Made by a program: the position numbers and the translations under genes. From Candidatus Bathyarchaeota archaeon (GTDB lineage: Archaea > Thermoproteota > Bathyarchaeia > 40CM-2-53-6), in the NCBI GenBank assembly GCA_963733055.1, contig CAVTBR010000001.1:960001-1024000 (forward strand): a stretch of DNA of 64,000 nt, given 5' to 3'. Below, one piece after another: positions 29,631 through 29,794 of this stretch. Below the pieces are notes generated by a model that was given only the letters and a program-made list of their open reading frames with translations, ran no database searches and was not told the DNA's origin. Position 1 is the stretch's first letter. Each line of letters begins with the position of its first letter.

Positions 29631-29794
29631 GCGGGGGTTGCCAAACCTTCAGCGTCGCTGGAGGGGCGAAGCCAGGTCAAAGGCGCGAGACACATCCGAA
29701 CGCATGTGCGCGAAGCTCAGGAACATCAAACGGAGGATGTTAAGAGACCTCGTCCCGTAGGGGTTCAGGGGTTCGAATCCCCTCCCCCGCACCA
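29631..29794 (+). tRNA. tRNA-Leu(CAG) with three BHB introns (14/15, 30/31, 37/38); CCA encoded
   Basis: Exons 29631-29644, 29671-29689, 29715-29721 and 29747-29794 join into an 88-nt cloverleaf: GCGGGGG/CCCCCGC acceptor stem, CGAGG/CCTCG anticodon stem, CTCAGGA loop, long variable arm, AGGGG-TTCGAAT-CCCCT T arm. Confidence 0.9.

Follow-up and report, generated by a model that had tools for sequence, protein, structure and literature searches.

Genes for tRNA that are interrupted by several introns are best known from Thermoproteales, where Sugahara et al. (2007/2008), as cited in PMC4033280 and PMC8450103, described them in Pyrobaculum, Thermofilum, and Caldivirga. PMC4033280 gives "a maximum of three introns" per archaeal tRNA gene, and PMC8450103 gives "up to three." For Asgard archaea, a preprint of October 2026 (bioRxiv 10.64898/2026.10.13.758758) reports up to five introns in one gene and about 2.2 per gene in three families. 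Our literature search found no publication on the tRNA introns of Bathyarchaeota or Bathyarchaeia. Here we analyze a tRNA-Leu(CAG) gene with three introns that occupies positions 29631-29794 on the plus strand of the window, the whole 64-kb stretch of DNA under study, which belongs to the genome of an uncultured archaeon of the Bathyarchaeia (G000). We are highly confident that this locus is a single functional tRNA-Leu(CAG) gene with three BHB introns, the transcript of which would be processed by EndA, RtcB, and RNase P.

In silico removal of 29645-29670, 29690-29714, and 29722-29746 left an 88-nt product that ARAGORN called tRNA-Leu(cag) and drew with a 7-bp acceptor stem, a long variable arm, a standard T loop, and an encoded CCA; these are the features of a class II tRNA-Leu, with a variable region of 14 nt according to our own parser. 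All four exons lie on the plus strand. Exon 1 (29631-29644; 14 nt) supplies positions 1 to 14, comprising the acceptor 5' strand, U8, U9, the D-stem 5' strand, and A14, and matches, base for base, the start of the intronless genes in the sister genera G024 and G023. Exon 2 (29671-29689; 19 nt) supplies positions 15 to 30, comprising the D loop, the D-stem 3' strand, G26, and C27 to G30. Exon 3 (29715-29721) is a 7-nt micro-exon, GCTCAGG, which corresponds to G31 to G37 and carries the anticodon CAG at 29718-29720; it is invariant in all 17 genes that we aligned and is contiguous with its neighboring exons in intronless orthologues. Exon 4 (29747-29794; 48 nt) supplies positions 38 to 76, with the anticodon-stem 3' strand, the long variable arm, the T arm, the acceptor 3' strand, A73, and the CCA at 29792-29794, which is likewise encoded in every one of the 17 tRNA genes resolved in this genome. 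Three open reading frames (29426-29743, 29607-29858, and 29649-29873) overlap the gene; the upstream region is unconserved among congeners.

The boundaries of the introns were examined in three independent ways. Our parser builds a cloverleaf grammar from an anchored T arm and may skip stretches of 10 to 130 nt that obey a BHB rule, namely, a central helix of three to four pairs between four exon bases and four intron bases plus a flanking helix, with 2 nt left between the exon four and the 5' cut and likewise between the intron four and the 3' cut. Its top solution for the locus consisted of the same three introns as those originally predicted, and every solution listed gave the anticodon CAG. 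The second approach made no use of motifs: uninterrupted 88-nt Leu(CAG) genes are present in the sister genera G023 (L039) and G024 (L044) and in a genome of another family, G025 (L047), and gapped alignment to the G023 and G024 genes placed insertions of 26, 25, and 25 nt at gene positions 13-38, 60-84, and 91-115. Twelve alignments were equally good, 13-38 being equivalent to 15-40 and 91-115 to 92-116, because flanking AA and G/A repeats allow the boundaries of introns 1 and 3 to slide; with the product unchanged, the slide amounts to up to 2 nt for intron 1 and 1 nt either way for intron 3, whereas intron 2 was placed at exactly 60-84. Among the sliding placements, the BHB rule selects the boundaries given above. 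The spliced sequence matched those of G023 and G024 at 78 of 88 positions without gaps. The third check came from two congeners that lack intron 1 (G021 and G018), in which the sequence runs exactly across the predicted junction. The original prediction of a tRNA-Leu(CAG) with BHB-type introns at 14/15, 30/31, and 37/38 and a 7-nt anticodon exon was thus borne out by ARAGORN, the parser, and the motif-free alignment, its coordinates and motifs agreeing exactly with ours and its mature length of 88 nt with that of the in silico product.

Introns 1 and 2 conform to strict BHB geometry, with four of four central-helix pairs and a 3-nt bulge at each site. Intron 1 (29645-29670, plus strand; 26 nt; 14/15) has an HBh' motif with central helix TGCC/GGCG, bulges AA|A and AA|G, an inner stem of 8 bp, and no outer helix. 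Intron 2 (29690-29714, plus strand; 25 nt; 30/31) has a full hBHBh' motif with central helix CGCG/CGCG, bulges AG|A and AA|G, a 5-bp inner stem (CACAT/ATGTG), and an outer helix of 2 bp. Intron 3 (29722-29746, plus strand; 25 nt) sits at the canonical 37/38 position and belongs to the relaxed class: its central helix CTCA/TAAG has three of four pairs, with C34 opposite A, and its bulges are GG|A and AG|A. All three introns have a flanking helix, the inner stems being 8, 5, and 5 bp long. Such structures were rare by chance: the observed combination of central helix and inner stem was matched by 0, 0, and 1 of 20000 shuffled versions of introns 1, 2, and 3, respectively, and a central helix with H=4 together with an inner stem of at least 5 bp occurred at 8 to 11 of 63301 arbitrary window positions. 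As a separate observation, the C34.A column (window positions 29718/29742; alignment A1 columns 127/154) is unpaired in all 17 genes, though a single A-to-G change would close it.

Folding with RNAfold gave different pictures for the three motifs. The pairs of the intron 1 motif had probabilities of 0.9 to 1.0 in every folding context, and the central helix of intron 2 reached about 0.25 to 0.5. In seven congeners, the inner stem and central helix of intron 2 are separated by two additional bases, and the strict rule then places the intron 1 nt off. For intron 3, the canonical central helix had a probability of 0.0 and carried a penalty of 9.4 kcal/mol relative to the register preferred by RNAfold, CUC/GAG; that preferred register is broken in three congeners (G019, G001, and G016). 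Across congeners, intron 3 ends in a variable dinucleotide (AG, AC, TG, or AA) preceded by four bases that stay TAAG or TAGG, as the canonical register predicts. The comparative sequence data therefore favor the canonical register for intron 3, whereas the thermodynamic model prefers another.

The original prediction also held that splicing is probably ordered, on the grounds that G31 to U33 are used by the folds of both intron 2 and intron 3. The overlap itself was found as described: C32 and U33 pair both in the outer helix of intron 2 and in the central helix of intron 3, and G31 lies in both motifs. C27 and G28, moreover, pair in the central helix of intron 2 and also in the anticodon stem, which is the outer helix of intron 3; that outer helix comprises 1 bp before intron 2 is removed and the whole anticodon stem afterwards, so that its 5 bp are gained only upon removal of intron 2. 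According to the tRNAscan-SE 2.0 paper (PMC8450103), closely spaced introns can require the removal of one before the BHB of the next can form. We nevertheless consider an obligatory order, with intron 2 removed before intron 3 or the reverse, doubtful. The contested outer helix of intron 2 is just 2 bp long and is dispensable for the HBh' class, the central helix and inner stem of intron 3 persist without any outer helix, and the penalty for enforcing the three motifs together (5.9 kcal/mol) is smaller than that for the register of intron 3 alone (9.4 kcal/mol). The canonical helix of intron 3 had a probability of 0.0 in RNAfold both before and after removal of intron 2, and thus folding lends no support to an order. 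No splicing intermediates were seen among the contigs of the RNA libraries described below. The step from the shared bases to a probable order was not sustained.

The sequencing runs found by our search hold just 5 to 8% of the sampled words. Two RNA and two DNA runs were examined against the locus. Both RNA libraries belong to the same study, and their contigs span the gene of a G019-like relative in its unspliced form; these contigs contain no joints at the predicted splice sites and show neither splicing nor its absence, and they may represent DNA carry-over or precursor. Two joints, 29653>29752 and 29682>29769, were discarded as evidence of splicing: they come from the DNA runs, have sides of 21 nt, and fit other Leu genes or relatives.

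Conservation of the gene was assessed by BLAST over 41 related genomes (G000 to G040), which recovered it in 16 congeners. Once aligned, the 17 genes show hardly any variation in their exons but differ in intron loops and lengths (16 to 33 nt); intron 2 is present throughout, and every gene splices in silico to Leu(cag). When four BHB structures were laid over the alignment, 91.7% of cells were paired, compared with 38 to 61% when the partners were slid by one to three columns. Changes on both sides were found in seven BHB pairs, five of them in the inner stem of intron 1. None of 500 shuffles reached the observed pairing or covariation score, a result to be read with the caution that related sequences can exceed shuffles without structure. 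These findings bear on whether the locus might instead be a Leu tRNA pseudogene in decay, disrupted by accumulated insertions, with CUG read by another tRNA. Such a reading could draw on the failure of standard tools to find the locus and on the imperfect motif of intron 3, and yet we find it scarcely credible: across 17 species, the exons change little or not at all, whereas the insertions differ but have their stems maintained by compensatory substitutions; a BHB motif is present at every insertion, far beyond chance; and the same construction is shared by most of the tRNA genes resolved in this genome. No substitute for the gene was found either. Among the resolved tRNA genes are one Leu gene each for CAG, TAG, TAA, GAG, and CAA, and an 11-mer of the Leu-type D loop has exactly five occurrences in the genome, one in each Leu anticodon gene. 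This locus is thus the only Leu(CAG) gene found, neither the census nor the 11-mer having revealed a second in an assembly that is 96% complete and so leaves room for another copy.

In 13 of the 17 genes (L003-L005, L007, and L009-L017), a fourth intron with central helix GGGG/CCCC interrupts position 8/9, giving introns at 8/9, 14/15, 30/31, and 37/38. The 8/9 intron is present in 15 of the 17 genes and absent from G000 and G019. Over the shared region, G000 and G019 are 94.9% and 98.7% identical, respectively, to the four-intron gene of G013 and at most 85% identical to the others. The proximity of both to a four-intron gene means that their three-intron state is most simply explained by precise loss of the 8/9 intron; G021 and G018 would, again most simply, have lost the 14/15 intron with the same precision. 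Since the genes of the sister genera and of the other family are uninterrupted, the Leu(CAG) introns appear to have been acquired in a single genus or along its stem. Most likely, the ancestor of this genus had four introns in Leu(CAG), and the lineage of G000 and G019 lost the one at 8/9, the polarity of gain and loss being read here from short gene sequences rather than from a species tree. The genus may thereby offer a natural series for the gain and loss of BHB introns, with none in sister genera, four in most species, and two independent precise losses.

Related arrangements were seen in other Leu genes and in public data. The Leu(TAG) gene of G000 (G000:C1:1428505-1428638, minus strand) begins with the same 14 nt as Leu(CAG) and has a clearly similar 14/15 intron (ACCTCCAG...GGGGTGAA), a likeness that suggests gene conversion or shared descent between isoacceptor genes. 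Two further Leu genes of G000, Leu(TAA) and Leu(CAA), likewise have introns at 30/31 and 37/38 that enclose an anticodon micro-exon of 7 nt, and elsewhere in the order this pair of introns is found in the Leu(CAA) or Leu(TAA) gene of other genera (G023, G025, G031, and G039; loci L041, L046, L051, and L054). A pattern specific for the architecture matched 15 public contigs, 13 of which are titled as Bathyarchaeia or Bathyarchaeota MAGs. The contigs of L028 and L035 show the same architecture in bins titled "Promethearchaeati archaeon" and "Candidatus Acidiferrales bacterium" and were probably mis-binned.

Upstream from the gene, a BRE/TATA-like block (TGCATTAGACTTATGT; 29569-29584, plus strand) is conserved in the alignment of 17 congeners and is the presumptive promoter. 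The 5' leader (29607-29630, plus strand; 24 nt) starts with GTGCGGG, which mimics the acceptor 5' strand, and continues with AAAAGCCTCTGACTATT. A GTGCGGGGTA block followed by a small hairpin lies directly upstream from G1; the block is conserved in 16 of the 17 genes and has degenerated in G000, and the sequence on either side could not be aligned. A TATA-like block of this kind precedes G1 by 28 nt in the intronless sister-genus genes, whereas here it precedes the upstream GCGGG(G) copy by about 31 nt; by this spacing, the mimic is the expected site of transcription initiation. When the genes of eight species were folded together with the leader, every minimum-energy structure left G1 to G7 free and paired the 3' acceptor strand with the mimic instead, and G3 to G6 form the central helix of the 8/9 intron in species carrying that intron.

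Several roles are possible for this leader: a splicing helper, the remnant of a duplication, or part of a cryptic further intron. As a helper acting in cis, it would pair with the 3' acceptor strand and free G1 to G7 for the BHB of the 8/9 intron, an idea that we regard as unlikely on present evidence. G000 and G019, which are without the 8/9 intron, have changes at otherwise conserved leader positions: a shared G-to-A change breaks the leader hairpin, and further changes affect the mimic in G000. If the leader is a helper, it may be starting to decay in the two species that lost the intron. Such a leader was not found upstream from the other 16 resolved tRNA genes of G000. The mimic was also rejected as a general feature, a pairing run of at least 7 with the 3' strand being present in Leu(CAG) only (shuffle frequency, 0.04) and absent from the other 16 genes, including Leu(GAG), which has an 8/9 intron. 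Were the helper role true, a pre-tRNA leader would program the fold for intron removal in a lineage with a recent gain of four introns in one gene.

The cryptic intron is a still weaker candidate, and we judge it very improbable. Under this reading, the tRNA would start at the upstream GCGGG (29609-29613), and 29614-29635 would be a 22-nt intron at 5/6, giving four introns in G000. The distance of 31 nt from the TATA-like block to the upstream copy, against 28 nt for G1 in the sister genera, would fit such a start, and on our inspection of the sequence, four pairs (two of them G.U) can form a central helix TGCG/TGCG and the mature sequence would be unchanged. However, this central helix has no inner or outer helix next to it, the internal hairpin lies 2 nt out of register and, again on our inspection, is broken in G000 and G019, and the central helix has only three of four pairs in seven congeners. 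Given five to six possible placements, chance alone would produce a four-pair helix in about 1 case in 10, and RNase P, the RNA of which is present, would yield the same product. We therefore retain the reading of three introns preceded by a 5' leader.

The genome encodes the enzymes that removal of these introns would need, that is, a splicing endonuclease and an RNA ligase. Two proteins contain tRNA-intron endonuclease domains (PF01974). EndA alpha (185 amino acids; L021:1474-2031, minus strand; PF01974 at 82 bits) has as its best solved relative 3p1z_B (E value, 3.6e-39; 179 residues aligned) and is also related to 2cv8_A and 3ajv_B, which are catalytic chains of heterotetrameric enzymes. 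EndA beta (188 amino acids; L022:1474-2040, minus strand) is 22% identical to alpha and shows a gap at the position that the His of IDHAP occupies in alpha, as would be expected of a structural subunit. The catalytic residues are taken to be those of the EndA of M. jannaschii. The alignment of EndA alpha to 3p1z_B spans the Crenarchaea-specific loop, and K44 and R46 of the A. pernix chain correspond to K39 and K41. Typing of the endonuclease had been suggested as a check of the locus, and the outcome, a putative two-subunit EndA with the crenarchaeal specificity loop, agrees with what the introns would require. In Aeropyrum pernix, according to PMC3241643, this loop and K44 are needed to cleave noncanonical and relaxed motifs. 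Compared with that enzyme (PDB 3p1z; PMC3241643), the loop and both basic residues are kept and a second, divergent subunit is present; assembly into a heterotetramer and broad specificity would follow by analogy with A. pernix, the enzyme considered here being known from its sequence. RtcB (577 bits) and an archaeal RNase P RNA (176 bits) are also encoded.

We propose that a heterotetrameric (alpha-beta)2 EndA would cut within each 3-nt bulge, these motifs being served by the loop of the catalytic subunit, which permits noncanonical introns in Crenarchaeota. RtcB would then join the four exons, including the 7-nt anticodon piece, and RNase P would trim the 5' leader. The predicted end product is an 88-nt class II tRNA in which the CCA is already encoded. 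In this genome, an EndA loop of the crenarchaeal type accompanies intron-rich tRNA genes outside the hyperthermophiles.

The gene is a known kind of structure and is commonplace in its lineage. In a partial census of G000, 33 introns were found in 17 tRNA genes that were resolved by the parser and confirmed by ARAGORN: two genes had none, four had one, five had two, five had three (Leu CAG, Leu TAA, Leu GAG, Lys TTT, and Gly GCC), and one had four (Pro GGG). The claim in the original prediction that three-intron tRNAs are rare does not hold for this genome, where at least five other genes have three or four introns. The tRNA-Pro(GGG) gene (G000:C3:546744-546926, minus strand) is 183 nt long, and its product after removal of four BHB introns was confirmed by ARAGORN. 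The census required an intact T arm and covered 373 of 390 seeds, and the parses kept were compact as well as ARAGORN-confirmed. Some candidates were dropped: ARAGORN-positive parses for Ile(aat), Ala(agc), and "Pyl"(cta) had introns of 60 to 130 nt and were considered spurious, and an interrupted parse of Asp(GTC) was set aside since ARAGORN calls that gene intronless.

Such genes largely escape standard tools. In the 64-kb window, ARAGORN with default settings found no tRNA and no Rfam family scored at its gathering threshold; at permissive thresholds, Rfam gave only fragments matching the T arm. A whole-genome ARAGORN run with intron search returned a call that ends at the same 3' base but was read as a tRNA-Phe(gaa) with a 289-nt intron. 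The expectation that standard tools would miscall the gene was therefore correct insofar as ARAGORN and the Rfam tRNA model miss it, whereas the specific miscall anticipated, Leu(TAA), was not seen, ARAGORN giving Phe(gaa) instead. Matches to the Rfam tRNA model numbered 12 in G000, 5 to 16 in 22 congeners, and 7 to 30 in the other 18 genomes of the order. The low counts hold even in genomes that are 95 to 100% complete, and interrupted tRNA genes thus seem to be widespread in the order. With 12 matches in a genome that is 96% complete, assemblies of Bathyarchaeia look tRNA-poor or incomplete unless intron-aware tools are used.

Taken by itself, the Leu(CAG) gene adds one more to the multi-intron tRNA genes of archaea, and its value lies in being a clean, well-controlled case. 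The Asgard tRNA genes provide one comparison: according to that preprint (bioRxiv 10.64898/2026.10.13.758758), most are interrupted, with about two intervening sequences per gene at BHB boundaries, many were missed by annotation, and the gains are described as recent and lineage specific. The host here belongs to a different phylum, and our figure of 33 introns in 17 genes comes from a partial census that is not directly comparable to a whole-genome figure. The other comparison is with Thermoproteales, which, according to the articles cited above, likewise have up to three introns per tRNA gene in hosts with an (alpha-beta)2 EndA and confront standard tRNA finders with similar difficulty. The present host differs in being a Bathyarchaeia archaeon rather than a hyperthermophilic crenarchaeon. 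Intron transposition has been described in Thermoproteales, whereas a blastn-short search found no copies of these introns elsewhere in the G000 genome. Finally, the four introns carried by 13 of the 17 Leu(CAG) orthologues exceed the three that PMC4033280 and PMC8450103 state for an archaeal tRNA gene.
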